The notes below the pieces were generated by a model that did not search any database, had not been told where the DNA came from, and saw only the letters and a list, made by a program, of their open reading frames with translations. Of a stretch of DNA of 55,946 bases, positions 5,235 through 40,471 are shown in pieces. Made by a program: the position numbers and the translations under genes. Each line of letters opens with the position of its first letter. The stretch's first letter is position 1. Source of the stretch: Stramenopiles sp. TOSAG23-2 (lineage: Eukaryota); the NCBI GenBank assembly GCA_900128395.1, contig LT649259.1, positions 1 through 55,946 on the forward strand. Reading direction: 5' to 3'.

Positions 5235-5472
5235 GAAGAAGGTCAATCAAAAAAATACAAACCAAATAATTAAAAAATACAATACAAGTACTAATACTAA
5301 TACTACTATTACTATACTACTAACACACCACTAATATATATAATGGTAATGTAGAAGAAGGTCAATCAAAAAAATACAAACCAAATAATTAAAAAATACA
5401 ATACAAGTACTAATACTAATACTACTATTACTATACTACTAACACACCACTAATATATATAATGGTAATGTA
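5235..5472. repeat. Tandem duplication, period 119 bp
   Basis: GAAGAAGGTCAATCAAAAAAATAC...AATGGTAATGTA occurs at 5235 and at 5354. Confidence 0.9.
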
Positions 5473-5684: not shown

Positions 5685-5939
5685 ATGTCGTCGACGTCCA
5701 GTAGTGACGAGGAGTTTGATGATAACGAAGATATGCCAGGTCTTGTTAGTGATAGTGAAAGCAATGATGATTCTGATTCAACGAAGCGATCTTCCTCTGA
5801 GGGATCATCGTCTGAAGGGGAAGAGACGGATGGTGAAGAGTCTGATAGCGATGAGTCTTCATCAGAGGAAGAGGAGGAAACACCTAAATTAAAAACTAAA
5901 ACTGGGGGAATTAAAAAAGGGTTTTTAAATTCACAACAA

Positions 5940-5974
<35 letters not shown>

Positions 5975-8900
5975 GAAGAGTGGTGGTGTAAAACAAAAAA
6001 AAACAGCTGCAAAAGCCCCGCCTGTTTCTGATGAAGAATTTTCTGATTTGCCAGACCTCCTACATGCTTCAGATGATAGCAATGTTTCTAGTGAGAGTAG
6101 TGATAGCGAAGATAGCGAAGATAGTCAAGATAGTGAAAATATGACAATCAATAACATGCCAACTCTAGTCGAGTCGTTTGATTCTTCTATGCCAACTACA
6201 AAACAAAGTAGTAGTAGTAATAATAATAATGCTGATGATGTTGGTGTGAATAACCCATTGTTTTCAGGTTTAAAACGTATAACCAAAAAAATGAAAAAAA
6301 AACAACCATCTTCCTCGAAAAGTGGTTTCCAATCAGGGTTTTTAAATTCTAAAAAGAAGAAAAAAAAGAATAATACAAACAATCAACAGAAGGTGAATAC
6401 TAAGAAAAAAGGTGCTTCAAATGCTCAACAGAAATCACATTCAAGTGGTGTTGATCCTCAGAAAAGTAGTTCATATGCAAACAGTAATAATAATAATAAG
6501 AGTAACAATCATACCAAAAAGAAACCTCGTCGAAATAAGAAGGAACAGCAAATATTCAACTATATTATCAAACGAAAAAAAACGCTTGAAAAAGAATTGA
6601 AGGAGTTGAATAAATATGCAAATATCGACAATTACACTGGAAAATTACGATCGGCATTTGAAAACAATAAGTATATCACATGTACTAATATTAAAGTTGC
6701 TATTGGATTTTTTCAATTTGCATTAAGTCATTTGAAAGGAATAAACACTGAGCATAATGAAATATTGGAGCCTAAAAATAAGATAAAGCTTGATTTTTCC
6801 GATGTTGCTACTATTTATGGGTACCGATTTAGGGAAGTAAATGATAGTAAAAAACGGTGCAACCATCAATTTTATGAAGCTATCCAATGTATGCCTCTCA
6901 TGGATCTCTCATTGGACTACAGAAACGACTTAACACAACGATTAAAGCAAATAGATCAACGCGAGCGTTTTCAAATCTCTCTTGATGCTACAATTAACAT
7001 AATGTTCTCCCTGACACAGTATAAGTACATGACAAATACATTATTTTTAGGAAATCCAAATTTTTTCCTTCAGCTGTTCGATGGCCAAGTCATAGTCTTA
7101 ATTGCTCCAGGGTTTTTTCATCATAGTAAAACGACCGATGGTAAAAAAGGGGAACCGCTTTGGGATATGATATCAAAATATTACGAAACCAATGTTACAA
7201 ATATTCAAACTGATTTTCCTGTTTGGAATCCAGAGTTTGGTAAGAGATTATTCTCTGAATTGAAACCAGTTTTAATAAATGCTGTGGATAAGGTTGTTGA
7301 GACTAAAAACGGTACCACATTGAGAAAACAACTGGTTGAATCTTTGATCCATGATCACTCTGATGATTATATACTTTTAGAAGGTATTAAATTATTAAGA
7401 GCTGCACCTAAATTTAATAAAATTTTGCAAGCATCATTTTTATCAAAAGGACGTCGTTTCGAACTTATTCGTGTCATGTTACGTATATTGAAAGAGGACA
7501 ATTTGTTACAAAATTACTTTTACGAAGTTGAAAAATCTCCAGTATTTACTCTAATTGAGTTAAATTTAAAAGGGGACAAAGTTGAATATTTAAATCTGAT
7601 TGATATGTTTATCAGTGAATTTGGATTTGACCCGTTGGTGTTTTGCAATCTAAACCCCAATGGCCGAACTACAAATACATTTCGTTTAATATTGGATATG
7701 TACTTTAAAGATGAGTTAGGGCAGAAAACAGTAAAAAAATATTTGGAATATTTCATGTTAGATTTGGAAAAATCATACAATGTCTACGAAAAAGTTATGG
7801 ATGATAAAAATTACGGTATTTTTGACGGTAAATCAGTGAAACAATATTTTGAGAGTAAATATGAAAAGGTAAATAAGCATCGAAAGAAAAAGGGGGATTG
7901 GAAACGAATGATTGCAGATGTTCAAAAAGAGCGAAAGAAGCGAAAGCAAAAGGCAAAACGGCAACGAAAAAAAGCAAATAATAACAATGATGATACCTTT
8001 GATAGAGATGTTAATGATGATGTAAAAACATCTGCTCGTGCGCCAAAGCCTTTGAAAAAGACGATGAAAAATACCGATTCTGTGAACCAAAAAAAGTCAT
8101 CCATTCCAGAACTATTGCACAATGACATAGTTAATATTGTCAATGAATTTACTAATGATACAGATTGGATAAGCAATTTGAATAATAATAAGGATTTATA
8201 TAATAATAATAATAATATCGATGAGGAATTATTAAGACGACCGCCTTCACCAGTTGCACCATCTGCAACCACAGACACTGTTGCATATTCGCCACCTTCA
8301 ACGGTTGTATCAGCGGAGACGCGAAAAAAAACAGTATCAGATGTAGAAAATCCAATCGATCCAAATAATGAAAGTAATCCAAAACAACCAAAACCTGAAG
8401 TTGCAGATCATTTATTGGATCAAATGGATTTTGATCCAGCATCCTTTGACTCTGGTAAACACGTATGGGAAGTTGTATTCTGTCGAAAAGTAAAAGATTT
8501 CTTTAAAAAACAACGAAAGAAAAATTTTCACACATGCGTACGTATGATGAAAACTATCAGTGAGCTTGCAACTGGAAATAGATGGAAACAGAATGAACGG
8601 TTAAAAAAAGGAGTTACTCATACGGTTAAAGACAAATTACAACTTAATCTATTCGAAGCTAAACCAAGTCAATCAGAGAGGATACTTTGGGAAATTACAC
8701 CAGAAACATCAAAGCGCCATGGCGATACGAGAGAAGTCATACGCATCTGGGATATTGTATTGGATCATGATAATCTCTCTTCTGCGATCATACAAGTGCG
8801 AAAAGCGCATAAGCTTGGGCAAGAGTCAAGAAAAAAATGGAAATGGAAGTTTAAACGAAAACAATTTATTAGCGATGACGAAAAAACGTATCCAGCTATA

Positions 8901-11900
8901 TATGTACGTCATGGAGAAAACGACATACAGAATGGAAATGATAATGCATCAGAGTTGACAGAACAATATTTCTTCATCGAGCCAGATACTGCAAAATTTA
9001 ATCCCATCCGACATTATTTTATCGATAGTTCTGCTGCCACAGCATTGTTATATTTTGAAGAAGACGACGATTTTGAATTAGAATCAGGTGGTAATGAACA
9101 AGAAACTCGAATTATTACTCGTGGCTTAAATCCCGATCCGAGGCAAAAAAAAGAGAAGGAATCATCCATATTATTGCTGGGAAGATCCGGTACAGGAAAA
9201 ACAACATGTTTGATATACCGTTTGTTTAATGAATTCAAATTATTTTGGAAACGAAGGAAACAAAATGAAGAAAAGCGAGTTCTACTTCGTGAAGAAAGAC
9301 AAGCTGAAATCAATCAACGTAATGCAGAAAAAGAAACTGGTGATGATGAAGAAATCGGCGATGAAAATTTGGAAACAGAGGAAGATGGCGATGATGAAAT
9401 TGATATCGCCCAAGATGAATTCGATGAGTTTGATGGTGAAGATTTTGGTGCAATTTTCATCACAAAGTCGCAAGTTCTTCGATCTGAATGCTTAAAACAA
9501 TTTAAGAAACTTCGTGCTGGACTCACCATAAGCGAAAAGGTATTAATAGAAGAGGAGGAAGATCGTGTTATGCCAGAAGATGCCCATCCATTAAGTCTAC
9601 ATGATTTACCTGCATCGTTTTATCGTGAAGATCCTGAACGAGCAAATTTGGGAACGCAAATTCAAATGGGAACGTTTCCAATGTTTTTGACGGCTGATGC
9701 GTATTGGAGAATGTTAGACAACACTTTACCCGGGGAACGAGTAAAGTACTTTCAGCATCGCCCAGTACCGTCAGATAAACCGAGGACTGTCGGGGATATA
9801 GTAAATATGAACCAAGATAACCCGCTTGATGGTTTAGAAGAATTACCAGTGGATGAAATGAATCTTTCATCTGATTCTGATTATACCGATAGTGAAGACG
9901 ATGAAATAAAAGAAATTGACAATATCGCTTTTAGTAACATTAATTACATTGAAGTAACGTTTGAAATTTTTGTCAAAGAATTTTGGGGTAAAATTAAAAA
10001 CGTCAAAAATGACAAATACAATGCTGCAGTGGTTTGGGGTGAAATTAGAAGTCATATAAAAGGTTCAATTCACTCGTATACTCATGAAACTCCATTAACA
10101 AGGCAAGAGTATACACTTACTGAAGTAGGAAAGAAGCAAAGTAATTTGTCTGAAGCAGAAAGAAATGAGATTTACGACATGTATCAAAAATATGAACGTA
10201 TGCGAAAGCAGGCTGTGCAAGGCGAAAAAGGTATCTCATGGTATTACGACATTATGGATGCTCTCCAAGAAATCATACCTCGCTTAAAGAAATTTAAAGC
10301 ATCTTCAGCAGATGAACAAAATAAAGTTGTCCCAGTTTTTACTTCATATGTAGATGAAATTCAAGACTTCACGCAAGTTGAAACGGCAATAATCATAAAT
10401 TTTTGCAAAGATCCAAACCGACTGGTACTTGCAGGCGATACAGCTCAAAATATTTGTAGTGGAATTAGCTTTCGTTTTGAAGATATTAAATCAATGTTTT
10501 ACAAATTAAATGAAAGCTTAATAAAAGAAAACGAAGTACGGAATAATATCCTTGAAGATGCTGAAGTATTGGAGATCGCAGTTGGAAAGAAATGGAAAAC
10601 AAAAACAAAAAGCATCAATGTTCCAAGTGAAAAAGATGGTACTTTTTGCCATTTAAACTTGAACTTTCGTTCTCATGATGGAGTATTATTACTTGCTGCG
10701 AGTGTAGTTGAGTTGCTATATGAATTTTTCCCCGTTTCAATTGATAAGCTTGATCCAGACAATGGAATAAAAGATGGTCCAAAACCTGTTTTATTTAAAT
10801 CTGGCAATGGACATGACTTACTTATGATGTTACTTGGATCTAGAGATACGAGTACAAAAGTGCCATTTGGTGCCTCGCAAGCGATTCTCGTGCGGTCCAA
10901 AGATGCAATAAAAGCTCTTCCAAAAGAACTCAGTGTACATCCCTTGATCTTGACGATCAATGAGTCAAAAGGTTTAGAATTTGATGGAATTCTTTTGTAT
11001 AATTTCTTTAAAAATTCAAAAGCAACAGAAAAAACATGGCGTTGTATTGCAAAGTATATGGATAGGCATAAACATAAAAGCATGCAAACGGTGGATGGAG
11101 AAATGTCACATGAAGAATTTCAAACATATTGTGATGAAATGAAAAGAAAATTACGAAGTAGAGCAAAAGATTTTGAGGAAACATCAGATCGTATTTTGGA
11201 AAGCGAATTAAAATTATTGTACACTGCAATAACACGTGCAAAATCAAATGTATGGATTTTTGATGACGATGACAATAAAAGCATTCCAATGTTTGAATAT
11301 TTTGAACGTAGAAAGTTAGTCAAAATAGTGCAATCAATTGAAGATTCGCAAAATGCGAATGCTAATATCGCCCAATCTGCTACCAATGGTGCTTATGAAT
11401 GGATTAAGCAAGCTCGGGTGTTTGAGAAAAGTGCTAGTATTAAGAAAGAATACGAAGAAAGAAAACGATTTTACAAGCTTGCTAAAGGGTGTTATGATAA
11501 AGCAGTTGAAGAAAATAACATTGCAATGAAAACGAATGCTGATTTAATCACATCAACTAAGAAAGAAGAGGATGACTATGAAGATGTAATAAATGAAGGT
11601 ATGATAAATTTACACTTTGATAAAACTTCATCTATTAAAAATAGACAAAATGAAAACAAAGAGCATTTGCAAAAACAAAACAAATATTGTAAGGAACAAA
11701 TTGTTAAATGCGAGTTTGAATTATTATTAGCTAATTCACAATATATCAAATCTACACAACCGAAGAAATACGTTGAAAGTTTATTGGAAGCTGCAAAAGC
11801 AGCAGCTGTTGCATTTAAAATGACTAGACGCAAAATTCCATATGGAAAATATTTATTGTCCATTTATTATAATTTAGCGAAACATGTTGAAACGAAAAAT

Positions 11901-12287
11901 GGTAGTATAAACGCGAAGAAATATTATGAAATTGCTGGAAATTTATCTTACACATTTGGAGAGCTTCAAAATGCTAAAAGTTTCTTTGAAAAAGCGGGTG
12001 ATAAGGAATCTGTGGCTAAAATCGAAACGTATTTGAAAGGTAATACAAATGATAGTAGTAGCGATTATACTGATAGTAGCGATGATGAAAAAATATCAGA
12101 TACTGCACAGATTGAAAATACTCTAAACTTAGTGAAAATGATGGACGAGGAACGAAACAAAACATTGAAAAATCGACGTAAGAAACGATTTAATAAAAGA
12201 AAAATGAAGAAAGGTAAAAAAAAGAAAAGTCAATCGACGAAAAAAAATGCAAAGCGACCAGCATTGAATGTCGAAGATGATTATTAA
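5685..12287 (+). CDS. TRANK1-like superfamily-1 (UvrD-like) helicase with an upstream RelE/ParE-like module; acidic and low-complexity termini
   Basis: Helicase motifs: Walker A GRSGTGKTT, Walker B YVDEIQD, AGDTAQNI, LNFRSH, SKGLEFD, LYTAITRAK. The segment LFEAK..ERILWE..EVIRIWDIVLDH resembles animal TRANK1. Confidence 0.85.
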
Positions 12288-12768: not shown

Positions 12769-13735
12769 CGAACGTGCGAACGTGCGAACGTGCGAACGTG
12801 CGAACGTGCGAACGTGCGAACGTGCGAACGTGCGAACGTGCGAACGTGCGAACGTGCGAACGTGCGAACGTGCGAACGTGCGAACGTGCGAACGTGCGAA
12901 CGTGCGAACGTGCGAACGTGCGAACGTGCGAACGTGCGAACGTGCGAACGTGCGAACGTGCGAACGTGCGAACGTGCGAACGTGCGAACGTGCGAACGTG
13001 CGAACGTGCGAACGTGCGAACGTGCGAACGTGCGAACGTGCGAACGTGCGAACGTGCGAACGTGCGAACGTGCGAACGTGCGAACGTGCGAACGTGCGAA
13101 CGTGCGAACGTGCGAACGTGCGAACGTGCGAACGTGCGAACGTGCGAACGTGCGAACGTGCGAACGTGCGAACGTGCGAACGTGCGAACGTGCGAACGTG
13201 CGAACGTGCGAACGTGCGAACGTGCGAACGTGCGAACGTGCGAACGTGCGAACGTGCGAACGTGCGAACGTGCGAACGTGCGAACGTGCGAACGTGCGAA
13301 CGTGCGAACGTGCGAACGTGCGAACGTGCGAACGTGCGAACGTGCGAACGTGCGAACGTGCGAACGTGCGAACGTGCGAACGTGCGAACGTGCGAACGTG
13401 CGAACGTGCGAACGTGCGAACGTGCGAACGTGCGAACGTGCGAACGTGCGAACGTGCGAACGTGCGAACGTGCGAACGTGCGAACGTGCGAACGTGCGAA
13501 CGTGCGAACGTGCGAACGTGCGAACGTGCGAACGTGCGAACGTGCGAACGTGCGAACGTGCGAACGTGCGAACGTGCGAACGTGCGAACGTGCGAACGTG
13601 CGAACGTGCGAACGTGCGAACGTGCGAACGTGCGAACGTGCGAACGTGCGAACGTGCGAACGTGCGAACGTGCGAACGTGCGAACGTGCGAACGTGCGAA
13701 CGTGCGAACGTGCGAACGTGCGAACGGTGCGAACG
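12769..13735. repeat. (CGAACGTG)n 8-bp tandem array
   Basis: 119 perfect units at 12769-13720, then a degenerate CGAACGGTGCGAACG. The array is truncated by the gap. Confidence 0.97.
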
Positions 13736-13788: not shown

Positions 13789-15132
13789 TTAAAACCAACC
13801 ACTTGATACACCACCTGCACCAGTTGATTTAGATAAGACTTTTTTACTCAACGTAACAAATGTTTGTATATCATTGCTTACTAAATCTTGATCCCATCGC
13901 ATGAATAAATCTAAACCTGAATTATTAAATACAAATACAAAGATAATAAGTACAAGTCCATATATTATAAAATATGGCCATGCCGATCGTGTCCCTGCAA
14001 ATACTGGACCAACAATATTACTATGCAATAATGATGTCGTCACCATAAATGCAATGCTAAATACAAGTGTTTTTTCAAATGCTAATAAAAAATTTCGCTC
14101 ATATGTAGCAAAGATACTAATACATGCATCCATATTACTTTTCCAAAAACTTCGATCTTGCATTGTTAATTCTTCACATACTTGACTTAGACGATTCACT
14201 ACAGGCTCAAAATATTGAGTTTCTAAGCGTTGCAAACCCCATCTCCAACGATAGAAATGCCGTACGACTGTCCATGCAACTGAATGAAAACCACCAATAA
14301 TCATACCAAAGACTTGAAAATGCATATTTGTCATATATAAATATGCAGTAGAAATAACAGTGCATTGAATCACAGTATGTGCATCTGTAATATAATCGTA
14401 TAAGAAAAAAATTTCATCAATTAATTTTTCACGTAATCCTACTCCATTTGGTAATTGAATATCATCCTTTGTCCATATATAAAAGACAAACGAACAAACC
14501 ATACCGACAAAGATAAGACCAGCACTAAAACCGTACATAAACCATATTAACAAATGGAAGAAACATGCAATTGAAAAAAATTGCAAAAGTCGTTGTTTCC
14601 ATGTTTCTAACGCTAATAATGTTAATTCATCTTCCATAACATCTGGATTTAACACGTAATAATCACGATCTGTTTCGCACCAAATATTTGGATTTTGTAC
14701 TATTGAGCATAAAGGGACAAATGCAGCTTTTCCATCTTTGATAGGTTCATACCATAATCCAGCAATACGACTATTCCATTTAAATCTTGGGACATCTTCA
14801 TCACCTTCAGTACTATGAATATGGGAATGATAAATTGCACTTAATACCATATCTGATAATTCTTTCGTGGTAAGTTTACGATTATTTTCACCAGTCGGTA
14901 TATATAATATTCTACGTTCATGTTCAATGTCATCATCATCTGGTGGACTTCTTCCAAATAATACTATACCATTTTGTGCTGATAAAATATTTTCATCATC
15001 TGTAAGTTTATGTTTTAATATACATAATTTAACATAACCGTCTGGTGCATCTGGTAACCCTGGGTATGATGATGATCTAGATATACGAGTATTATTTCCA
15101 GATGATGGTGAAGTGGATGGTGATGATGGCAT
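13789..15132 (-). CDS. Multi-pass membrane protein of unknown function (447 aa)
   Basis: Long ORF with a soluble N-terminal ~175 aa followed by about 6 hydrophobic segments. No family recognised with confidence. Confidence 0.75.
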   Translation of the reverse strand: MPSSPSTSPSSGNNTRISRSSSYPGLPDAPDGYVKLCILKHKLTDDENILSAQNGIVLFGRSPPDDDDIEHERRILYIPTGENNRKLTTKELSDMVLSAIYHSHIHSTEGDEDVPRFKWNSRIAGLWYEPIKDGKAAFVPLCSIVQNPNIWCETDRDYYVLNPDVMEDELTLLALETWKQRLLQFFSIACFFHLLIWFMYGFSAGLIFVGMVCSFVFYIWTKDDIQLPNGVGLREKLIDEIFFLYDYITDAHTVIQCTVISTAYLYMTNMHFQVFGMIIGGFHSVAWTVVRHFYRWRWGLQRLETQYFEPVVNRLSQVCEELTMQDRSFWKSNMDACISIFATYERNFLLAFEKTLVFSIAFMVTTSLLHSNIVGPVFAGTRSAWPYFIIYGLVLIIFVFVFNNSGLDLFMRWDQDLVSNDIQTFVTLSKKVLSKSTGAGGVSSGWF

Positions 15133-15287: not shown

Positions 15288-15496
15288 TTGTAATTATTTT
15301 ATACAATTATCATCAACAAAACTCCACCCTATACCACCCAAACAAAATACCAAAGTCTATATATCTTATCCTTATTGGATATTATTGTATTGTAATTATT
15401 TTATACAATTATCATCAACAAAACTCCACCCTATACCACCCAAATAAAATACCAAAGTCTATATACAGTATCTTATCCTTATTGGATATTATTGTA
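15288..15496. repeat. Imperfect tandem duplication, period ~102 bp
   Basis: Copies start at 15288 and 15390 and differ by a substitution and a small indel. Confidence 0.85.
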
Positions 15497-16121
15497 AATA
15501 TATAAGTTACAGTGTAAGAGTTGGATTGGGTTGGTGTTTTAGGGGCACACTTCATTGGAAATATCATATATTTTAAGTATAATAATTAGTATTGTATATA
15601 CAGACTTATATATTTTTTTACTGAAAACATAGGAATATGATTGAAATAATTGAAGAATAATTGAAATAATATACAGTTTGTTTTTAGTTTTCCTTAATAT
15701 ATACAAAGTAGTAGCTGGAATACAAGAAATCCGCAAAGATAATAATAATAAATACGAGGCGTATATGCTGGTACCAGGTAAACTGGTATATGCCAAGGTA
15801 CTATTTGCACGAGTGCCTGTGTGTCTATGCTATTGATTTCAGGCGTTCACCATTTACCACCATTTACCACCTCTATTCCACTACATAATCTCTAATTACC
15901 ACAGATATTATACCATACTAGGTTAAGGTAATACAGAAGATATATGCATCTCACATTAGTCTGCGTCGTCAGACTCTTTCCGGGAAGAAAGACATATGAA
16001 GCACGCGACAATAATACCTGGTAATACCTAGGTACAGTAATAATAATATGATAAGCAACGTGCATAAAGTAATAATAAAAAATTAGGTGCTTAGATATAT
16101 AGATATAAAGTGTGTATCACA

Positions 16122-16335
16122 GACTATATACAAACACCTCTTCCATATTTTTTTAAAAAAAAACTACAAAATAAAATGCCACTTCTCGAATCAACCGCCT
16201 CGTCAAAAACGGCGTGTGTTTCCACGGCGACTATATACAAACACCTCTTCCATATTTTTTTAAAAAAAAACTACAAAATAAAATGCCACTTCTCGAATCA
16301 ACCGCCTCGTCAAAAACGGCGTGTGTTTCCACGGC
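16122..16335. repeat. Tandem duplication, period 107 bp, spanning the alkB 5' UTR and start codon
   Basis: GACTATATACAAACACC...TTTCCACGGC occurs at 16122 and at 16229, giving ATGs at 16176 and 16283. Confidence 0.9.
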
Positions 16336-17707
16336 GCCTGTATTTAATAAATCTCTTGGACTACCCAAAAAACCTGATGAAGGGTGGTGGGCACTTACAC
16401 ATCACAACTCAAATAATCAAAAAGGGAAACATCCTGGGGATAATAATCCAATAGTACAAACGTTATTATGGAGTGTATGGTTAATTTTACTCATTTCAAC
16501 TGCATTAATTGATGATTTTTTTCAATTTGTTGGTGCTGTTTGTTTCTTAGTCGTACTGTGTATATTTATTCCAGATGATGGAAGTACAGTATTACCATAT
16601 TACATACATTTAATATTGCCTATTATTGCATTTAAATCTGTATTGCAAGGTGGCCATTATTCGTTTTCAATGTTTTATTTTATATTTGGTATTGTTCCAT
16701 TAGCTGATTATATACTTGGTGTTGACGTAGCAAATCAATCAAAAGAGGAGCAAAAGATATTAAATAAATATTATGGATTTAAATTGTTTACATTATTAAT
16801 TCCTATTTGTGTCGCTGGTGTTATTGCTGCAGGTGCATATTTTTTGACACAAACAGAGGAAGGTAAAAATTTAACTTCAACTGAATTTATTGGTTTTAGT
16901 TTATCAGTTGGATTTTATACAGGAGCAATTGGGATAGTTGTTGGCCACGAACTTTGCCATAAAGCAAAATGGTATGAACGTTTATTAGGAAGGTTTTTAA
17001 TGTGCGCTGCTTGTTATGGGCATTTCTATGTAGAACATACACTAGGCCATCATAAAGACGTTGCGACTGATAAGGATCCAGCAACAGCACGGTATGGGGA
17101 GGACTTCTATTCCTTCCTTCCAAGGGTTGTAATAGGTGAATTTACATCTGCATGTAAAATCGAACTTGATCGGTTAAAGAGAAAGAAATTACCATGGTGG
17201 CAAAATGAAATCCCAATGTACTTTAGCGTTTCAGGTTTAATGGCGCTAGGCCTTTACATAGCGTTTGGTGCGATAGCAGTGAAATATTTTTTACTGCAAG
17301 CTGCTTGGGCGATTATATTATTTGAATCCGTAAATTATTTAGAACATTATGGTTTGGAAAGACGTCAAGACTCAAATGGAAAGCATGAAACGGTGAAGCC
17401 ACAACATAGTTGGGATTCCCCGGCAAGGCTTACGAATATGGTAACCATTAAATTACAAAGACATGCTGATCATCATGCACATGCTGGAAAAAGATTTCAA
17501 ACACTTCAAGCATATGAAGCTTCCCCGCAGTTACCAAGCGGATATGCTACAATGATCGTTCTTGCTTTCTTCCCACCGATTTGGAGATACGTGATGCATC
17601 CTCGATTAATGCGTTTTCGAAAAACGCAAACAGGTCAAGTTTGGAGACATGGACCACAGCCAGAATATGATGAGAACAATGGTGAGGGTGATAAGAAGAA
17701 GAAATAA
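16283..17707 (+). CDS. alkB: Alkane 1-monooxygenase (AlkB-type membrane di-iron hydroxylase), 474 aa
   Basis: His boxes GHELCHK, EHTLGHH, NYLEHYGL and LQRHADHHA, plus DPATARYGE and PQLPSGY, and multiple TM helices. The start is taken at the in-frame ATG of the second duplicate copy. Confidence 0.92.
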   Translation: MPLLESTASSKTACVSTAPVFNKSLGLPKKPDEGWWALTHHNSNNQKGKHPGDNNPIVQTLLWSVWLILLISTALIDDFFQFVGAVCFLVVLCIFIPDDGSTVLPYYIHLILPIIAFKSVLQGGHYSFSMFYFIFGIVPLADYILGVDVANQSKEEQKILNKYYGFKLFTLLIPICVAGVIAAGAYFLTQTEEGKNLTSTEFIGFSLSVGFYTGAIGIVVGHELCHKAKWYERLLGRFLMCAACYGHFYVEHTLGHHKDVATDKDPATARYGEDFYSFLPRVVIGEFTSACKIELDRLKRKKLPWWQNEIPMYFSVSGLMALGLYIAFGAIAVKYFLLQAAWAIILFESVNYLEHYGLERRQDSNGKHETVKPQHSWDSPARLTNMVTIKLQRHADHHAHAGKRFQTLQAYEASPQLPSGYATMIVLAFFPPIWRYVMHPRLMRFRKTQTGQVWRHGPQPEYDENNGEGDKKKK

Positions 17708-17718
17708 CAAGTACATTT

Positions 17719-17941
17719 TTGTGTACGACTTCGTAATAATATTTTTAATTATAATTATTATTTGTTTTTATATTTATAAAGCTAAATCCTCTACGTGTAT
17801 TTTCGTTTTTTGCGCCTATAATAATCGTTTTGCTTTAAAATGTGTTGTGTACGACTTCGTAATAATATTTTTAATTATAATTATTATTTGTTTTTATATC
17901 ATATTTTAAAGCTAAATCCTCTACGTCTATTTTCGTTTTTT
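17719..17941. repeat. Imperfect direct duplication of ~95 bp between convergent genes
   Basis: TTGTGTACGACTTCGTAATAATATTTTTAATTATAATTATTATTTG...CTCTACGT occurs at about 17719 and 17845. Confidence 0.85.
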
Positions 17942-17967
17942 TATATATATATAAATAAAAACTTCTC

Positions 17968-20529
17968 TTAACTCATTGCCGCTTCTAATACACCACAGGC
18001 TATCATTACATCTTGAATTGCTACACCAGTTGAATCAAACAATGTTATACTATCATCATTTTTACCACTACGAATATTATCTTCACTGCTCCCTTGCAAT
18101 AATAATTCTCCCAATTCTACTACAGGGTGATTATCATCATTATCAGAGCAACATGATAATTCGCCAAATGCTAAGCATTGTTTTTTTGAATCTGCTACTT
18201 TTACATCTGCTTGCTTTACTAAATCTTCAGATAATTCTCGTTTGCCAATGCCATCGCTGCCGATTGCTGTTATATGGGTACCAGGGCGTACAGAGTGTAA
18301 AATTGGTTTCTTTGCCGATGTTGTTGTTACAATTAAATTACATTCCCTAGTCAAATCATTCATTTCTGTGGCAACCGCTACATCAAATCCTTCATTTATC
18401 ATTTCACTTTTAAATATATTCGCTTTTTCTATATTTCTTCCCCAAACAACTACTGGTGCAATTATACCAACCACTTTTAACCATCTCAATTGAAAACGAG
18501 CTTGCATGCCAGTACCTACTATGCCAATTTTTTCTAATCCTTGCTTTGCATTTATTTTAGCTAATTTTCGTGCTGCAATTGCCCCAGCAATTGCTGTTCT
18601 TACATCTGTTAAATACCCATTATCAAACAGAATGCTGTCTGTATTTCCAGACTTTTGATTAAATACTAGCATTAATCCAGTTGATGTACTTTTATTTAAT
18701 GCTACATTTCCAGGGAAACCACCCGCACATTTCACAACAAACTTATCTCCATTTTTTATAAATCCACTTTTGACACATACATCACCATATGAACCAAGAT
18801 CCAAATGCTGTACCGGGGCTACTTCAACAAGCCCTTGAGAAAAGGATATAAATCCATTTACTTGCGCTTCAATTAATGTAAGAAATTTTTCTTTAACTAC
18901 TCTTTTAATTGTATCTAATCCTAATGTAAATGGAGATTTGGTTACAGCATTACCATTATTGTTTGTGATTGTAGTAATTTCATTTTTAGTAACCACCTCG
19001 GCATTTGCATTTTTTACTTCTACTGCTTTTTTTACAATCTTGGACCATTCTAGAATTTTTTCTTTTGATTTTTTTTTATTTGCACGTAACCAATTAAATT
19101 TATCATTCGGTAGACTTCTCAAATGTTGAACAGTTTTGTTTACACGTGGTGTCAAACCTGCTTGAATCAACGTTTCATCAAATTTTGCTGGATGTGCTGT
19201 TAGTACACAAACAGTATTATTATGGTCTAGCTTATTTTTTATTTTATTATTATTTATATTGTCTTTATTATCATTATTTAGCTTAAAGTATGCAAAAACG
19301 CCAATGGCAGAGTGTGGGCAAAGATGATATGAAGACGCTTCATCTACCTTTTTCATTACATCCATTGTGGATTTATCTGTAACATTTAAACTTGTAAATG
19401 TTTCTTGAATTTTTAGAACTAACAATTCATCTAATTGGCATCCACGACGTTTGGTAGGTCCATTATTACTATTATTTTGCTCCAATTGTTTCATATAAAA
19501 GCTTACTTCATCTGAATTTTGATTTAACATGAAGTAAAGCATCCGCTCCAAATTGTATGCAAATTGAATATCCATAGCGGGCGAAACTGTTTTTTTATTT
19601 GCACCCATAAACATATCGCCAGTTGATAGTGTACGATGTACAATATCATTTGCATTTGTAGCGCATATAATTTTATCGATTGGGAGATTCATTAATTTTG
19701 CAAGATAGCCACCGCATGCATTCCCAAATGCACCAGAAGGTACAATAAATGTTACTTTTTTCTCACACAAAGGTTGTAATTGTATGTAGCTCCAAAAATA
19801 ATAACACGATTGAGCCATAATCCTGGCAAAATTAATACTATTAATTGAACATACAGAGTATTTTTCCATGAATTGTGAATCCATAAATAACATTTTCAAC
19901 GCCTCGGCTTGCTCATCCGTATTACCTTCTGTACGAAAAACTTCTACATTATCCGAGTCAACAGTAGTTAATTGTAATTCCTGTACAACACTAACACGTT
20001 CATTTGGATATAGACAAAAAATATTAATATTCTTTAAATCTTTTACCGCTGCAATGGCTGCAGGGCCCGTATCTCCAGAAGTTTCTACTATTATATTTGC
20101 ACGTTTTTTTCTTTTTCCTAAATAATAATTTAAAAGTTGCGCAACAACTTGTTGGCCAATATCTTTAAATGCTAATGTTGGACCATTTCCTGTTTCAAGA
20201 AAATACGGGTAGTTATCTTTCACTTTCAACAAAGGCAAGGATGGAGTTTTCCCATCATTAAAAGTTTTGAATGCAGCTTCACACATATCTAAACAATCAG
20301 CAGCTGGTATAGATGTATACATTTCCATTACAAATGCAGTCACTTCAGCAAGTGTTGCTTTTTTTGCTGCCATTCGCTTTAAATCAACGGATTTGATTTT
20401 CGGTATGCATTCTGGGACATATAACCCACCATCTGTCGCATATGCTGAGAATAATATCTTTTCAAATGGTTGATTTCTTTCTATAGATGCACCACGTGTT
20501 GAACAATATCGTATTTTAGATGTTGCCAT
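17968..20529 (-). CDS. Fusion: threonine synthase-family (fold-type II PLP) domain + ornithine cyclodeaminase/mu-crystallin domain, 853 aa
   Basis: N-terminal half: YCSTRG, DGGLYVP, GPTLAFKD (PLP Lys), ETSGDTG, NSINFAR, VPSGAFGN, SPAMDI, CPHSA, TAHPAKF. C-terminal half: YLTDVRTAIAG, GIVGTGMQA, HITAIGSD, FDSTGVAIQD. The first ATG is at 20529; the ORF-track start at 20553 is GTG. Confidence 0.9.
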   Translation of the reverse strand: MATSKIRYCSTRGASIERNQPFEKILFSAYATDGGLYVPECIPKIKSVDLKRMAAKKATLAEVTAFVMEMYTSIPAADCLDMCEAAFKTFNDGKTPSLPLLKVKDNYPYFLETGNGPTLAFKDIGQQVVAQLLNYYLGKRKKRANIIVETSGDTGPAAIAAVKDLKNINIFCLYPNERVSVVQELQLTTVDSDNVEVFRTEGNTDEQAEALKMLFMDSQFMEKYSVCSINSINFARIMAQSCYYFWSYIQLQPLCEKKVTFIVPSGAFGNACGGYLAKLMNLPIDKIICATNANDIVHRTLSTGDMFMGANKKTVSPAMDIQFAYNLERMLYFMLNQNSDEVSFYMKQLEQNNSNNGPTKRRGCQLDELLVLKIQETFTSLNVTDKSTMDVMKKVDEASSYHLCPHSAIGVFAYFKLNNDNKDNINNNKIKNKLDHNNTVCVLTAHPAKFDETLIQAGLTPRVNKTVQHLRSLPNDKFNWLRANKKKSKEKILEWSKIVKKAVEVKNANAEVVTKNEITTITNNNGNAVTKSPFTLGLDTIKRVVKEKFLTLIEAQVNGFISFSQGLVEVAPVQHLDLGSYGDVCVKSGFIKNGDKFVVKCAGGFPGNVALNKSTSTGLMLVFNQKSGNTDSILFDNGYLTDVRTAIAGAIAARKLAKINAKQGLEKIGIVGTGMQARFQLRWLKVVGIIAPVVVWGRNIEKANIFKSEMINEGFDVAVATEMNDLTRECNLIVTTTSAKKPILHSVRPGTHITAIGSDGIGKRELSEDLVKQADVKVADSKKQCLAFGELSCCSDNDDNHPVVELGELLLQGSSEDNIRSGKNDDSITLFDSTGVAIQDVMIACGVLEAAMS

Positions 20530-20975
20530 GGTTTGGTATGAATTATAATACACTTTACTGTAATATGTCGGTAATATTATCTTCCTTGAATTTAGCAGAA
20601 TATATTTAATATATAAATAATTCGTGATGGTTAAAATCTAAGTTACAATAATTTTAGTATATATATTTATATTTTAATATTATATTGAAATATATTTAAA
20701 CCACATCATACAGACAAGCTACATCTGTATATATAATATAATTATTATTACTTATAATCATAATACTTGTTGTATTAAAATGTGGTGATTGATGTGATTG
20801 TGCGATTTAAAGGGTAAATAAATTTTTATTATACTAATAAGTATAAATTATAATACCCATATTTTAGTATCAAATCTCCGATGCACTTTGAAATGTAAAT
20901 GCTAATCATTATAATAAATAATTTCAATAATACTTTTTCAAATAATAATTTCTAATTTGGTTTTAGTTTCTTTTT

Positions 20976-23900
20976 TTACCGCATTTTCGCTCTGCTATCA
21001 TATCGCCTAAATGTTTGTTGCATATCGGCGGATGAAGCATTCCATACAGAGGAATCACTAAAGGACATCACTCGTCTAGCTTTTAAATTTCTACGACGGA
21101 ATTTCTCTGCATTTAACTCTAATTTCATAGCATCCATCGATAACATTGCATTGGCACATGTCTCTACTATTAATGCTGCATTTCTACTTCGAACATTTTG
21201 GAACGAGCTATGAGTACTTTCAATTGCTAATAAACCTCCCTCGTTGATAATAATTTCAGCTTGCCCTGCACTAGCCATAGCAATGTTTTCTAATGTACTA
21301 ACACAACGTACGCATATTTGTGGGCGATTGGGCCATGCACATAAATTATTAATGACAAAAGTAATACCACCTTGCACAACTGTTAAACGTAAAGCCTCTT
21401 CGCTAAATGATAAAAGACCTATAATTGCTATAACCCCGGTAAGGATTGTATATTCTGTTGGATAAAGTTGCGTACAAATCTTCATCAATGGAGGTATTGC
21501 ATATCTTGCAACATCAAACATACAGTTGTCATCGGCTGCTAGTTTGTTCAAAGCATTCACTACAATGCCTATCAATTCACGATCATAGCCTTCTCCTTCA
21601 CTCAAGGAAATTAAATTTGAAACCGATGCTATACCACCAAGTGCAACCATCCGCCTACGCGTTTCTTCATCAGCAGATAAATGATAAAATGCAGACACTG
21701 TGTTTATAAGAACATCTATGCGACTTTTTTGCAATGTTGAATTATCAATAACACCTACAACTACTTGGAATCCACCATCTTCCAGCAAAATATTTCTACA
21801 TGTACTAGATGTACATATGGCATGGACCATGGACATAGAATGCTGTATCACAACGTCATCATAATCATGAATTTGGATAATCTTTAAGATCGTTTCAACT
21901 ACATCTTTCACAACTAAACGCTCCAATGTAGCGGCATAAATTGTTGCATTATACAATGCTTCCAGTCCTGATGCTAAAACCTTTGAAGGAACGGATTGGG
22001 AAATAGTTTCCAAGATTATATCTGGAGCGCGATGCGAATACAATTGCTCATGGTAATCATTATTATCTTCAATATCGTCAAATTCCGCGAGGAAGAAATT
22101 CCCAAGTACATCCATACTTAGTTTCAATATTTCATGATGTTTTGGATGGGATTCAATGAAGTGCACTACAACGGAAGTTCCGCCGCTTGAAACCACACTA
22201 ATCATCAATTCGTCTGAATCGCATAACACTCCAAATAAACGCGTTCCATGGGCGGCAACTTGCTCTTCCTCCCGATGGCGATGTGTTAGATATAGGATCT
22301 TTTGATCAAGTATATCCCAAACAGTTTGTTGTATAGGTACATTCTGAGCACATAGATTGGACAATAAATGCAGGCATAAATATTCCACCTCCACTGATGT
22401 TTCCATGTAGTGATGCATTACATATTCTAACCCACTAACAAGCTTCAACGTATCTACTAAATGATTCGAGATATCTGGTGCCCGGTACGATAGATTAATC
22501 AAGCATTTTAAGCACGGAATGATTAAATCTACATATTCTAGATATTTCATCATCAATTGCACAGCAACAACGCCAGCACCTTGCGATCCATACATTCGTT
22601 GATTGTGTCGTACTTTTGTAGCATTTTCCATCTCCGTCATTTTTTTTGTATATTGTTTAATATTTCCAGCATCTACTTCGCGCAATTCCTTGACTCGCTG
22701 CGCTACTGTTTCCTCGTCTTCCACTTTAACAATTGCTTTTCCAGCCGGCCGTTTATATCTTTTTTCTGCTTTTTTTAATGCCGCTTTTAACGCGCTGATA
22801 TCCATGATATCTTCATCATTGTCGAGTTCATCTGTTTCCATTCCTTGTAACAATGACAATGCATCTTTGGAAAATTTATCATTTTCATCATCTTTCTGCG
22901 AACCAGCAAGTGCAGCAGAGATGCGAGAACCGACACGCATATTAATCAATTCCTCCGAAACAAGTGCAGATGAATGTACATGTTCTGTAACTTTGTTCAA
23001 AACTTCTAAACATGTCAATGCATGTTCTGAATTATTTTCTAATGTACTCATAACATTTGCAACAAAACCATTCAACTCGCTTTGTTTTCCAGAGTTAGCC
23101 ATACCAGTAACAATAGATTGCATTGCTTGCGAACCTCCTTCAGTGGAACAGATTTCAGCCATATTAGCACTGATGACTTCAACCGCTTTCGATTGAGCAC
23201 CTGGCATGTAATCGTGGACAATATCACTCAAAGCAGAATCGGCCATCAAATATACTGCACTTTGAGGACTCATTACTTCCGACAATATTTTATCTGCATG
23301 AATGGTAACATTTTCTTCCTCTGGAAATTTATTGACTAGCTGAACCGCAGCACTGGATATTTCTTGCTCAATTAAAGACTCTCTCAAGCCTTCCACCTCT
23401 TTGGAGGCTACAACTAGCGTGGCTAGTAATTCAGCCGCACCTGCTGCTGCGGGAACAAATGCAGGATCGGATGGACATTCCATTGCAAATTTAATGACAC
23501 TTCTAGTACCACCACGTTGCGATACTGCATTTGCACCCTCATTAGTCTCTGCTAAAATTTTTAAAACTTTTGTAGCAGCTAAAATCACATCAGGGTCGTT
23601 CTTATGCAATTGCAAGACACGGATGACTAGTCGAATGCCTTTTTGGTTTAAAATACTTTCGCGTAAATGCTCAACAGTAGCCAACGTAGCTAGTAGCTCC
23701 AATAGTTCGGTAACGTCGTATTTTGCATTTGCTTGAAGGCCTCGTAATACACATTCAATAGTGCCATTGTCTACAATCTCATCAATCATATTTTGAGCAA
23801 CTGATGGATCAGTTTCTCCAGATCTCATGGTTGATTGGATAAGCCCTCTCAGTGCGCGAGCGGCAGCATTAACAATTTCTTCTTTTTCCGACGTTTGTAA

Positions 23901-26900
23901 AGTTGTTAACGGAGCTACATCGAGACTACATGCCAAGGACAATGCCTGTATCATAACACCCAACGCACCTTTCTTTAAAACTGCATGGGTTGCACTTTTT
24001 GATATTGCACATGTAGACATAACACGCAAATGCGCTAAGAATGTCTTTGCATCGGATGGTACCCGACTAACCGACGGCCCTAGGCGATCTATTTCAACCA
24101 GTGCATGGTCAAGAACTTCTAGATCGATATGATGTTTTTCTATATCCAACGTCTCATCTAGCAAATGTTTCTCCATGACGTCAACTATTTCTGCAATCGT
24201 TATTGAACAGGATTGGTGAAGACTTTCTTTATTATGGCATGTTGGTGGCAAGTTAATAATACTTTTGCAAGTTTTAATCGCCGCTTCAAGCGCCCCCATC
24301 CGTACGATTTGAACGCCGGTAGCGTCGGAGCTTGCATAGACTAATAAGGTTCTCAAATCTACCATCATTTGCGCTTGGAGCTTCGCATCTTTGGCTATTT
24401 TTTTTTTATTGTTAGGATCTGTAAGTTCATTTAAACGGTTTACAGCATCTGCAGCATACCCAATAGGCAAATTCGTAGCAGCTTTCATGTCACATTTGTC
24501 AATCATTGCTTCACATGCTTCAACAATTTCTTTCCTAGTGGATGCAGGTAAATCACTATCATCCAACCCAGCCGTCCTACCCATGGCCGCTAAAATACTA
24601 CTGATACCTCCTAATCTAGTAACTAAATCTTGTGTTTCACCAGACAAGGCAATACCCTCCATAGCTTTTAAGGAGTTTAATAATGCTTCCCCGGAATCAT
24701 TACTGGAAGCTTCGTGGGATGCATAACCTGCATTAGCATTTGCGCGTGCATGTGTATCCCAAGATTTATCATTGCCAAATATAGTATACATTTGCAATCC
24801 ATCAATTAAACCAGCTCGAGTTATACCATCAAAGCCATCCAAATCCATGTCTTGCCACAATGAATCGACTAAGCCTTTCGCAATTTCTTCGTTCAAACCA
24901 GAATCAATAAACATGTACAACAATTCCTCCTTAGGAATTTGATACGTATCTGACTCTATTCCTAAAGAATCTACAAATGGAATTATAAGGTGCGGCTCCG
25001 GTACAAATTCTTGTTGCATCTTTGCTCTGCTAACTTTTTCAATCAAATTTAAGAATGCCTGGGCAGATGATACATTCATTCCAACATCATCTTTGTCTAG
25101 ATCTTGATCCCTACTACCTAGGCGTTCTGCAGCAATTAAATCTGCTATTTCAACCAAAAATGCATCGCTGACATTTATCCCGGCATCCTTACACATTTCA
25201 CGCAAAAGAGATTCATTGACTACACGATCCGTAGAAACGCCGTTCACATCTACCAATCCATATTTTTGAATCCATTGATCCCACTTGCCATTGTATTCTT
25301 CATCGATATGATCAAGTAAATGCGCTAATAAAACACCGGTATGCGCATCATTTTGATTTTGTATGTACCTTCCTTCACCAGATGCGACTAATGCAACATT
25401 TACCATTTCGCTTAACCATTCCTTTGAAATGGCTACATCAAAGCTCAAGCCGTAAATATCCGTCAGTGTGTTCATAAATTTCAATGATTCAGTAGAGTCA
25501 AATCCAACCGACGTCATTTTACCAATAATATCAGGCGTTGTCATTGCGAAACAACTAGCCCCTTTAAAAACTCGTGCGGCAAACGAATCGCCATCCTCGA
25601 CTTGATTATGCAAGAAACGTTTTGTCGATTTAAATTGGTTTACGCGTTTTAATTGCTGTAAAAATTCTTTCATATTTGAATGGGGGTCTTTTTCAGAAAT
25701 CAAATGCAATAAAGACAATAAATCATTTTTTGAAGTCTGTAAACCAAGTACATTAGCAATGAGTGATAGATCCGTCATTGTCAACGAATTATCTTCAATA
25801 TCATCTTCATCTTCAATCAACTTTAAATGTCGTAAAAATCTCATGTCATCCCCACTGTAATATTGTTCAATGCCATCGACCATACGTGCAAGTAATCGTA
25901 AAGATGCAATTTCACCTAGATTTGCATCTGTCATATGTGCACCGGGCATACCCCCAGCAAGATGTCGTAAACGTTCTATACCACCTTCTAACGACTCTGG
26001 TGTAAGATCTGCCTTTTCCATAGTGTTGCCCAATTCAATTTCCTCAGCGCTGTCATCCCAATGCATTGTATCAGACATCACCGAACTGAGTTGCAAGGCT
26101 TCCATGATGCCTAAATCAGCTTGTACAAAATGTTTTTGCAAATTTTGCTGGCTTGTATCGCCAACTTCGATGGAATTCAACTCACATTTTTCCACGAAAT
26201 GTGGTGTATGACCTATGGAAAATTCAAGAGTTTCATGAACATTGTTGACTGACATTTTTTTATTTAATGCGTCATATAATCCCTCAACAGTCGAATTTTC
26301 CTGTTTAGCTAATGTTTGGATTGCATGCCGTAAACGTCCAATATCGGATCTGCTTGCATCATTAACCCCACATGCTTTTAAAACTTTTTTTAACTTTCGT
26401 ATATTTAATGGACCACGTATAATTTTACCATTTACATCAGCCATTTTTACGGATTGAAACATGGCTAGAAGACTGCCATTATATTTCATATCAATTCCAC
26501 GTATAATTTTTGAAAGCATATCAGATGCTTCAATAATATCTAATTGTTCTTGTGGTAACTCTGGACGTGATAAAATAATACAGGTGTCTAAAAATTCTGC
26601 TATTTCCGCTGGACTAAATTTACGTTTAATCTCTACGGCACTACTATCATCATCACTATCCCCATCTTGGTCGTCATCATTTGCAAAACTAAATTCATCG
26701 GGTAAATCGTTATTTGCTTTAGGCTTTTTTGCACTTTTCTTCAAAATAACATCAGAGCTATGATTTGAAAGAGCTTTCAACATATCTCCGATTTTTTGAA
26801 TTTCATTCGTATCTAAAAACCCATCCATAAAAAATTTATCAAGTATATCTTCTATTGTTAATTTACCACTAGCATATTTGCCTAAATCCATATGTGAAAC

Positions 26901-40126: not shown

Positions 40127-40471
40127 CCCTCTAAACCGTGTCAAAAATGTACAAACCGTGCAAAAAATGTACACTTCATAAAATAACAAAATAACACCAT
40201 TCACTATGGGAAATAGGTATATATCGTTTTCTAAAATACCAATTTTATTTTTCATATATTTGGAAAAATTAGCAAATATCCGAAAATATAGAAAAAAATA
40301 TGAATATTTTATATATCGTTTTCTAAAATACCAATTTTATTTTTCATATATTTGGAAAAAATAGCAAATATCCGAAAATATAGAAAAAAATATGAATATT
40401 TCCCCCATAGTGAATAGTGTTAAGTGTACATTTTTTGCACGGTTTGTACATTTTTGACACGGTTTAGAGGG
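40127..40471. mobile_element. MITE with 50-bp perfect terminal inverted repeats
   Basis: CCCTCTAAACCGTGTCAAAAATGTACAAACCGTGCAAAAAATGTACACTT starts at 40127 and its reverse complement ends at 40471. There is an inner IR (AACACCATTCACTATGGG / CCCATAGTGAATAGTGTT) and an internal 92-bp duplication at 40218-40401. No ORF. Confidence 0.9.

Follow-up and report, generated by a model that had tools for sequence, protein, structure and literature searches.

The AlkB protein is the main marker used for counting alkane degraders, and two of its representatives from Fontimonas thermophila, the AlkB-AlkG fusion FtAlkBG (8f6t) and FtAlkB (8sbb), are to our knowledge the only AlkB entries with a solved structure. 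A further relative is the OCT-type AlkB of the GPo1-type alkBFGHJKL/alkST system, represented here by Pseudomonas plasmid pCP7-41, in which alkB shares an operon with genes for two rubredoxins, aldehyde and alcohol dehydrogenases, an acyl-CoA ligase, an alkS-like product and alkT. Here we describe an AlkB-family gene located at positions 16283..17707 on the forward strand of contig LT649259.1 (assembly GCA_900128395.1), a 55,946-base stretch of DNA from Stramenopiles sp. TOSAG23-2 that was analysed at its whole length and is referred to below as the window. A preceding interpretation, made without database searches and termed here the sequence-only reading, had proposed a eukaryote-encoded alkane monooxygenase with a long-chain-type channel residue. 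That the gene encodes a real eukaryotic AlkB-family enzyme is virtually certain, and the analysis adds the definition of a eukaryote-only branch of AlkB, predicted to have eight membrane helices, with no rubredoxin fused to it or encoded in the window.

The gene is a complete, uninterrupted and intron-free open reading frame (ORF) of 474 codons plus a stop. It encodes an integral-membrane di-iron hydroxylase of the AlkB family, as established by Pfam, phmmer and AlphaFold2 (AF2) analyses. Its product matched the Pfam family FA_desaturase (PF00487) with an E-value of 1e-31, whilst a phmmer search of the PDB retrieved 8f6t (1.1e-68, residues 124-444) and 8sbb (1.4e-64, residues 133-443). Within a protein atlas it was related to generic bacterial alkane 1-monooxygenase clusters only, and no NCBIfam family was matched at E <=0.01, the presence of an AlkB model in that library being unconfirmed. 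The protein shares 32-35% identity with FtAlkBG and FtAlkB, with a common fold over residues 96-463, and 33.5% identity (residues 135-472) with the OCT-type AlkB, with which it has family membership and histidine boxes in common.

A word-seeded family search scored 7,998 candidates, of which 2,157 fell at E <=0.001 and the best 120 were listed. The closest among the matches listed were unnamed environmental proteins of 61-86% identity, followed by MMETSP and EukProt transcripts and brown-algal genome proteins of 40-58% identity. Named eukaryotic relatives included proteins of Ectocarpus, Ascophyllum, Choristocarpus and Nemacystus, as well as one from the transcriptome of the dinoflagellate Gymnodinium smaydae, and the brown-algal nuclear AlkB genes reside on contigs of 160-292 kb. 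Proteins of this clade are already present in public databases, some of them labelled alkane 1-monooxygenase. The best bacterial proteins among the matches listed, from a Verrucomicrobia metagenome-assembled genome (MAG) and Legionella, were approximately 45% identical. Bacterial homologues of this kind (Verrucomicrobia and Calditrichaceae MAGs, Legionella spp.), about 350 aa in length, have the highest prokaryotic identity to the window protein, at 41-46% from residues ~102-140 to ~443, but lack the N-terminal extension, C-terminal RHGP tail and F347/K258 signature described below.

A quick maximum-likelihood (ML) tree of 115 rows placed the window protein in a group of 52 rows, with a support of 99 in the Shimodaira-Hasegawa-like approximate likelihood ratio test (SH-aLRT). 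A more careful ML analysis (LG+C20+F+G4, with ultrafast bootstrap and SH-aLRT) was conducted on 74 rows hand-picked from the 120 matches and 78 bacterial genome loci, with fragments of <340 aa omitted. These rows comprised 28 extended eukaryotic sequences, three other eukaryotic sequences, 41 bacterial sequences (22 from named genomes), the OCT-type AlkB and, as outgroup, XylM of pWW0. The 28 extended eukaryotic rows formed one group with a support of 100/99, and all 31 eukaryotic rows likewise formed one group (95/89), which was present in 98% of 200 bootstrap trees. The larger group takes in Cyanidiococcus with its partner P0107, and Phalansterium; the Cyanidiococcus and Phalansterium proteins do not carry the extension. 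The OCT-type, actinobacterial and Legionella AlkBs fell within the ingroup along with the window protein. No supported bacterial sister of the eukaryotic clade was found in the 74-row tree, the ~350-aa homologues included, and the position of the root is uncertain because the XylM branch is very long (~6.6).

This topology fits a long-standing presence in eukaryotes, be it through a single acquisition or through passage between eukaryotic lineages, better than a recent transfer into this protist. The sequence-only reading had envisaged a predatory protist, and a special acquisition by one predator does not agree with a clade that appears to be old and eukaryote-only and includes phototrophs such as brown algae. 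In a viral collection, 202 of 303 stretches encoded AlkB-family relatives, at 28-37% identity. One of these (L006) had appeared to reach into the N-terminal extension, and was rejected as an ordinary GC-rich, 414-aa bacterial-type AlkB beside an integrase-like ORF. Four IMG/VR sequences (L007, L016, L022 and L082) carry AlkB-family genes of 31-34% identity on contigs of 377 kb and 719 kb and in two giant-virus bins.

The iron ligands were mapped through a HMMER alignment to 8f6t, using the FtAlkBG ligand list given in PMC12262299 (chain index = paper number + 3). The sequence-only reading had found all four AlkB motifs intact, and this held at the level of individual ligands. Histidine box 1, HELCHK (residues 222-227; 16946..16963), provides H222 and H226; box 2, EHTLGHH (residues 251-257; 17033..17053), which is followed by the clade-fixed K258, provides H252, H256 and H257; the NYLEHYG motif (residues 351-357), which with F347 and V350 occupies 17321..17353, provides E354 and H355; and box 3, LQRHADHHA (residues 391-399; 17453..17479), provides H394, H397 and H398, all on the forward strand. 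In this order they correspond to H137, H141, H167, H171, H172, E271, H272, H311, H314 and H315 of FtAlkBG, such that the nine histidines and one glutamate are identical in the two proteins; each is also kept in at least 48 of the 52 clade rows.

An AF2 model of the window protein, built on a 57-row alignment, had a mean predicted local distance difference test (pLDDT) score of 93.1 and a predicted template modelling (pTM) score of 0.92. The two best Foldseek matches of this model were 8f6t (E 5e-21) and 8sbb (E 1.8e-18), and VIA-align returned the same two structures with Z 42.3 (rmsd, root-mean-square deviation, 2.2 A over 358 residues) and Z 39.0 (rmsd 2.7 A), respectively, after which Z dropped to about 15 or lower. 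The predicted di-iron site is therefore intact within an AlkB fold, and the enzyme is catalytically intact as judged by its ligand set. The AlkB-type assignment of the sequence-only reading was upheld against both of the identities that could have displaced it, by phmmer, the XylM-rooted tree and the fold scores. Identity as a xylene monooxygenase was rejected, as XylM aligned at 30% identity over residues 201-434 only and formed a distant outgroup, and no 2Fe-2S pattern was present in the window. Identity as an ordinary desaturase was likewise rejected, given the Z of 42.3 and 39.0 for the AlkB structures versus 5.2 for stearoyl-CoA desaturase 1 (4YMK). The latter shares the PF00487 superfamily, a cytosol-facing histidine-box di-iron site in a helical membrane anchor and the lack of a fused or adjacent rubredoxin, but its structural likeness is distant, and as a functional analogy it extends no further than topology and electron supply. 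The sterol C-22 desaturase of Tetrahymena was also set aside as a relative since, according to PMC9485055, it belongs to a separate branch of the superfamily and is not an AlkB.

One departure from FtAlkBG and FtAlkB is an N-terminal extension shared by the eukaryotic clade (residues 1-98; 16283..16576, forward strand), which in the window protein adds ~98 residues and two predicted helices relative to FtAlkBG, itself an enzyme with a rubredoxin domain and without a eukaryotic host. Approximately 133 residues precede the column of GPo1 Trp55 in the window protein, whereas the nearest bacterial homologues have ~33 before it and the OCT-type enzyme 54. The additional hydrophobic N-terminal segment noticed in the sequence-only reading was resolved by the AF2 model into two helices, at residues 56-75 and 79-95, with which the hydropathy peaks agree, giving a predicted total of eight membrane helices versus six in the bacterial core. 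The structural alignment with FtAlkB begins only at residue 96-99 of the model, and at the 78 bacterial genome loci no match began before query residue 84.

The extension begins with a conserved peptide, MPLLE...TAC-I/V-STAPVF (residues 1-21), which is better kept than the linker that ensues; its TAC-type core was detected in 27 of 51 clade rows and in none of 61 others. A WWAL motif follows at residues 35-38, the WW motif being present in 25/51 clade rows versus 0/61 others. Of the clade rows in which these motifs were not found, many either have an incomplete N-terminus or are members of the brown-algal and P0052 subclades. When residues 1-125 were used in a phmmer search against 1.84 billion representatives, 21 proteins were retrieved at E <=0.001, all of <=473 aa, of which four were AlkB homologues from the family search and 17 were pieces of 80-313 aa. 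No Pfam family was matched by this segment at E up to 10. The extended architecture is common to the proteins of brown algae (Ectocarpus, Ascophyllum, Nemacystus), G. smaydae and MMETSP, though the brown-algal AlkBs are without the MPLLE...TAC peptide and keep the WW and RHGP motifs. It was also observed that the structures ranking directly behind the two AlkB entries, at ~10% identity, came from the chloroplast import motor Orf2971/Ycf2-FtsHi of Chlamydomonas, of which 8xks_K (Z 15.1) and 8xqw_M (Z 13.3) are subunits, one of these alignments beginning at model residue 20, inside the extension.

The C-terminal tail is similarly clade-specific (17636..17704, forward strand). It carries an RHGP motif, of a type present in 39 of 51 clade rows and one of 61 others, and ends in KKKK, a di-lysine KKXX-type terminus that recurs in several close relatives. 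Other eukaryotic subclades terminate differently: P0052, P0059, P0062, P0095 and P0103 (550-570 aa) have in its place a conserved Cys-rich end, CxxCLDPE/AxC, and the members of another end in R-x-R-x-AGA. Neither of these ends matched a Pfam domain; they could be metal-binding or sorting signals.

The substrate channel was examined through the residue that corresponds to Trp55 of GPo1 AlkB. The HMMER alignment pairs Ile134 of the window protein (codon ATA, 16682..16684, forward strand) with Trp62 of FtAlkB (8sbb), which PMC10110569 equates with GPo1 Trp55, and in a 122-row MAFFT alignment Ile134 shares its column with Trp55 of the OCT-type enzyme of pCP7-41, a medium-chain type. The placement of isoleucine at this position by eye in the sequence-only reading was thus correct. 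According to PMC10110569, AlkBs with A, V, L or I here act on alkanes of C12 or longer, and a W62V variant of FtAlkB gained activity on C13-C14 alkanes. The column nonetheless contained V in 40 rows, I in 24, A in 20, L in 14, T in 13, a gap in six, G in two, and M, P and W in one each. A small residue (V/I/A/L/T, 111/122) is therefore the family default and tryptophan the exception, so that whilst the long-chain-type residue is indeed present and compatible with chains of at least C12, it does not distinguish this protein from other AlkBs. Ile134 permits chains of at least C12 as a correlate of chain length, and is no proof of the use of C13+ alkanes.

Other channel positions were consistent with this picture. 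The second constriction residue of FtAlkB, L141, is Ile216 in the HMMER alignment, and the gate and substrate residues of FtAlkBG have hydrophobic counterparts (I54 to I134, the gate being Ile in both proteins; I133 to I218; L263 to L346; I267 to V350). The predicted channel is hydrophobic, as in FtAlkBG and FtAlkB, and free of a tryptophan constriction. The position of FtAlkBG L264, which PMC12262299 describes as touching dodecane, is occupied by Phe (F347), and Lys258 is near-fixed in the eukaryotic clade.

No electron donor was found in the vicinity of the gene, as the sequence-only reading had stated for rubredoxin. When the 55,946 bases of the window, and these only, were scanned crudely for motifs in six frames, no rubredoxin, cytochrome b5 or 2Fe-2S pattern was detected, and the only paired CxxC match was a FYVE finger at 1559-1654. 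Pfam identified no redox domain in the window protein, nor in its nine longest relatives (449-593 aa), which have the desaturase domain only; of fused relatives of 831-2370 aa none was scored, which is weak evidence. None of the two rubredoxins, the rubredoxin reductase and the downstream dehydrogenases that the pCP7-41 operon encodes beside alkB lies near the protist gene. A dedicated rubredoxin (AlkG) and its reductase, fused or encoded close by, characterise the AlkB system and not the enzyme family as such. The simulations of PMC12262299 single out K173, R215, N168 and N317-P318 of FtAlkBG at the interface with rubredoxin. The basic residues are kept in the window protein (K258 and R300), whereas N168 is replaced by T253 and N317-P318 by H400-A401. 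A cytochrome b5-type donor, suggested by analogy with endoplasmic reticulum (ER) desaturases, may be considered a serious candidate, albeit one falling somewhat short of an even chance.

Several lines of evidence established that the gene is eukaryotic. Of a further 18 ORFs longer than 150 aa in the window, 13 were matched by Pfam, and the domains recovered were typical of eukaryotes (FYVE, AIR9, LON substrate-binding, Myb, RRM, JmjC, GST, ATG27/EGF, cyclophilin, OGFOD2 and ARM). The GC content of the AlkB gene is 0.369 and that at third codon positions (GC3) 0.248, within the range of eight neighbours (0.17-0.29), confirming the host-like setting claimed in the sequence-only reading. An independent contig of 4,524 bp (L001) is 98.6-99.2% identical to window positions 16064-20746, and spans the AlkB gene into the neighbouring gene on the reverse strand (17968..20553), a threonine synthase/ornithine cyclodeaminase (ThrS-OCD) fusion. 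In a second contig (L002), the frame of an 81%-identical relative is split after WWQNEI by a 79-nt GTAAGT...CAG (GT-AG) intron of spliceosomal type, the removal of which restored an intact 471-aa frame. The window gene differs from that of L001 by nine synonymous and two non-synonymous changes, with a ratio of non-synonymous to synonymous substitution rates (dN/dS) of 0.06; for L002 the ratio is 0.086, with dS saturated.

The stretch was present in 20 of the 24 public runs listed, originating from 13 studies, and six of these runs were RNA. Coverage was examined in four runs, consisting of two DNA metagenomes, one oligo-dT library and one poly(A) metatranscriptome. Both metagenomes cover the gene, for instance with a single contig at 16262-17739. 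An oligo-dT RNA contig of 1,458 nt spans 16347-17749, and the poly(A) metatranscriptome contributed contigs at 16229-16619, 16653-17216 and 17394-17654. RNA depth was zero across most intergenic bins; RNA contigs also leave 15317-15778 and most of 18551-20600 bare, and have no bearing on those regions. The gene is thus genuinely nuclear and transcribed, and belongs to an uncultured marine protist with an AT-rich genome that is poor in introns. Its eukaryotic encoding, as put forward in the sequence-only reading, is now supported by the intron in L002, the poly(A) RNA contigs, a composition like that of the host, purifying selection and membership of a eukaryote-only clade.

The assembly around the gene contains several duplications. 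A perfect 107-nt tandem duplication (about 16122..16335), identified by repeat search and Tandem Repeats Finder, extends over the 5' leader, the initiation codon and the opening 17 codons, and the upstream ATG within it (16176) does not share the reading frame of the gene. The duplication is single-copy in L001, as it is in an X6 run's DNA contig (joint 16149 to 16262), and this single-copy form gives the gene an ordinary 5' end. A two-copy direct repeat with a period of 126-130 lies in the 3' intergenic region (17719..17941), and is also single-copy in L001; it includes a high-copy element at 17810-17844, and loose contig ends occur at 17810/17844 in metagenomes. Further exact or near-exact two-copy tandem duplications were located at 2477-2587, 5235-5472, 15288-15496 and 40218-40401, with exact 2.0-copy units of 56-119 nt at these four sites and units of 56 to 130 nt across the window as a whole, and those at 15288, 16122 and 17719 are single-copy in other assemblies. 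The duplications resemble overlaps between contigs that were left unmerged, or else duplications of very recent origin. The downstream join is confirmed by L001, whilst no examined contig bridges 15304-16066 towards the upstream ORF (13789-15132), and the contigs of three runs stop near 15957-15992; linkage of the gene to its neighbours thus stands on the downstream side and is unbridged upstream.

It might be argued from these features that a bacterial alkB fragment was mis-assembled into a eukaryotic contig, its joins being marked by the perfect 2.0-copy duplications on both sides, which are single-copy elsewhere and have similar counterparts across the window, and with no examined contig reaching the upstream ORF. 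We consider this exceedingly improbable. L001 runs from the gene into ThrS-OCD, poly(A) and oligo-dT RNA contigs include the gene, none of the 78 bacterial loci has a match upstream of residue ~84, and the clade includes nuclear genes on long brown-algal contigs. The eukaryotic neighbours, GC3, L001 linkage, L002 intron, dN/dS and poly(A) RNA in combination exclude bacterial contamination or a chimera.

The explanation we favour, and hold to be probable overall, is that this eukaryotic-branch AlkB acts as a long-chain hydroxylase in an endomembrane and is served by a separate carrier. It would hydroxylate the terminal methyl group of unbranched aliphatic chains of at least C12, the substrate being either free alkanes or alkenes, cell-made or taken up, or the aliphatic tail of an endogenous lipid. 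The N-terminus consists of a conserved acidic peptide with no signal- or transit-like sequence and, because there is no cleavable-looking presequence and the number of added helices is even, which would leave the two termini on the same side as the catalytic cap, both termini and the di-iron site are predicted to lie on the cytosolic side of an endomembrane, probably that of the ER. Electrons would be delivered by a separately encoded carrier, and a chain of the cytochrome b5 type, such as serves the desaturases of the ER, appears likelier in this role than rubredoxin. Terminal hydroxylation of long aliphatic chains is itself a reasonably likely activity, and free alkanes as the physiological substrate are a possible but rather doubtful choice.

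A number of observations weigh against this explanation. Phe347 is present in 50 of 52 clade rows, versus Leu in 58 of 58 other rows (signature counts from which 12 of the 122 rows, namely seven fragments, XylM, P0040 and three non-extended eukaryotic rows, were set aside), and this clade-fixed Leu-to-Phe change may have shifted specificity away from plain alkanes. No alcohol or aldehyde dehydrogenase or acyl-CoA ligase gene is clustered with the AlkB gene, although such clustering is unexpected in eukaryotes. A di-lysine end was found in 6/43 clade rows with complete ends versus 2/18 others, and is as an ER-retrieval signal a hint only, too sparse to be evidence of localisation. His at 400 and basic residues at 300 are common in bacterial rows too, so the interface changes are no proof of a switch of partner. 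The RNA evidence consists of assembled contigs, which attest the presence of the gene and not transcript ends, strand or expression level. Lastly, full-text literature searches yielded no paper on a eukaryotic AlkB of the alkane hydroxylase type, subscription journals and preprint supplements being outside their scope, such that a published mention is possible.

The Phe347 change, together with the presence of the clade in brown algae, gives real weight to an alternative in which the enzyme modifies the cell's own lipids instead of free alkanes, through omega-hydroxylation or desaturation of a fatty acyl, alkenone or alkene, sphingoid or isoprenoid tail. The conserved N- and C-terminal additions of the clade and its spread over phototrophs without known growth on alkanes are consistent with such a role, as is the catalytic plasticity of the superfamily, of which the Tetrahymena sterol C-22 desaturase, in another branch, is an example (PMC9485055). 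The ligands, the Asn-containing HYG motif and most of the channel residues are, however, the same as those of proven alkane hydroxylases, and no feature for binding a lipid head group was identified; on the whole we regard own-lipid modification as somewhat unlikely. Less likely still is the scenario of the sequence-only reading, in which C13+ alkanes such as cyanobacterial pentadecane and heptadecane are oxidised from prey, making the protist a eukaryotic sink in the marine hydrocarbon cycle. Small residues at both constrictions (I134, I216) are compatible with substrates of at least C12, and the gene occurs in marine metagenomes and poly(A) metatranscriptomes from the 13 studies. Two hydrocarbon-cycle papers, checked by term search, moreover score alkB in bacteria and archaea only (10.1101/2025.10.24.684404; PMC10176705). 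Yet the residue state, being the family default, is scarcely informative, brown algae that are not phagotrophic include clade members, and the best named relatives of the neighbouring gene come from several lineages (E. huxleyi, a choanoflagellate and a chrysophyte). As the clade includes phototrophs, cyanobacterial alkanes from prey are one of several candidate substrates. The more elaborate version of the favoured long-chain hydroxylase would make the eight-helix branch a rubredoxin-independent, b5-fed ER omega-hydroxylase of long-chain alkanes and alkenes, by which abundant marine protists and algae consume C15-C17 hydrocarbons from cyanobacteria and algal photodecarboxylases, with the N-terminal peptide as a docking or regulatory element replacing the rubredoxin interface; taken as a whole it is speculative and improbable.

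Beyond the AlkB gene itself, the adjacent ThrS-OCD gene encodes Thr_synth_N, PALP and THR4_C domains fused to an ornithine cyclodeaminase/mu-crystallin domain. Most of its relatives are a threonine synthase alone, and the same fusion is shared by two environmental clusters (62-63% identity) and by Emiliania huxleyi, which is the best match among the named relatives that have it. The best named relatives overall were E. huxleyi (49%), a choanoflagellate (47%) and a chrysophyte (45%). Two very long ORFs are also present, one of 2200 aa at 5685-12287 on the forward strand with a weak hit to UvrD_C_2, and one of 2701 aa at 20976-29081 on the reverse strand with a weak ARMC5/ZER1-like hit; both run uninterrupted, which illustrates how few introns the genome has. 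A tRNA scan of the window returned none.

Two kinds of repeat were observed in addition to the duplications. The short intergenic elements at 17810-17844 and 15957-15992 reach a summed depth of up to ~1300 in metagenome and RNA contigs, and are multi-copy repeats in this or related genomes, since contigs break there with divergent continuations. A nearly perfect 8-nt tandem array (12769-13735), with ~121 copies of the unit CGAACGTG and 99% matches, separates the 2200-aa ORF from that at 13789-15132; it raises local GC to 0.41-0.43 and leaves all six frames open, generating spurious ORFs of 350-530 aa.

In the literature searched, matches for a eukaryotic 'AlkB' concerned the DNA/RNA demethylase, which is not related. 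As regards the two hydrocarbon-cycle studies, the term 'eukaryot' occurs zero times in 10.1101/2025.10.24.684404, and PMC10176705 refers to eukaryotes only as hydrocarbon producers or community members. A possible consequence of a transcribed AlkB branch in the marine samples of 13 studies is that eukaryotes account for a share of the environmental "alkB" signal, and protists and algae may themselves oxidise hydrocarbons or similar lipid tails. The branch also poses a biochemical question, namely how an AlkB is reduced without its rubredoxin, and what role the two extra helices and the N-terminal peptide play. If the substrate were one of the cell's own lipids, a bacterial catabolic enzyme would have been recruited into eukaryotic lipid metabolism; if, on the other hand, the enzyme were a b5-fed hydroxylase of alkanes, it would constitute a eukaryotic sink absent from current models of the short-term hydrocarbon cycle of the ocean.

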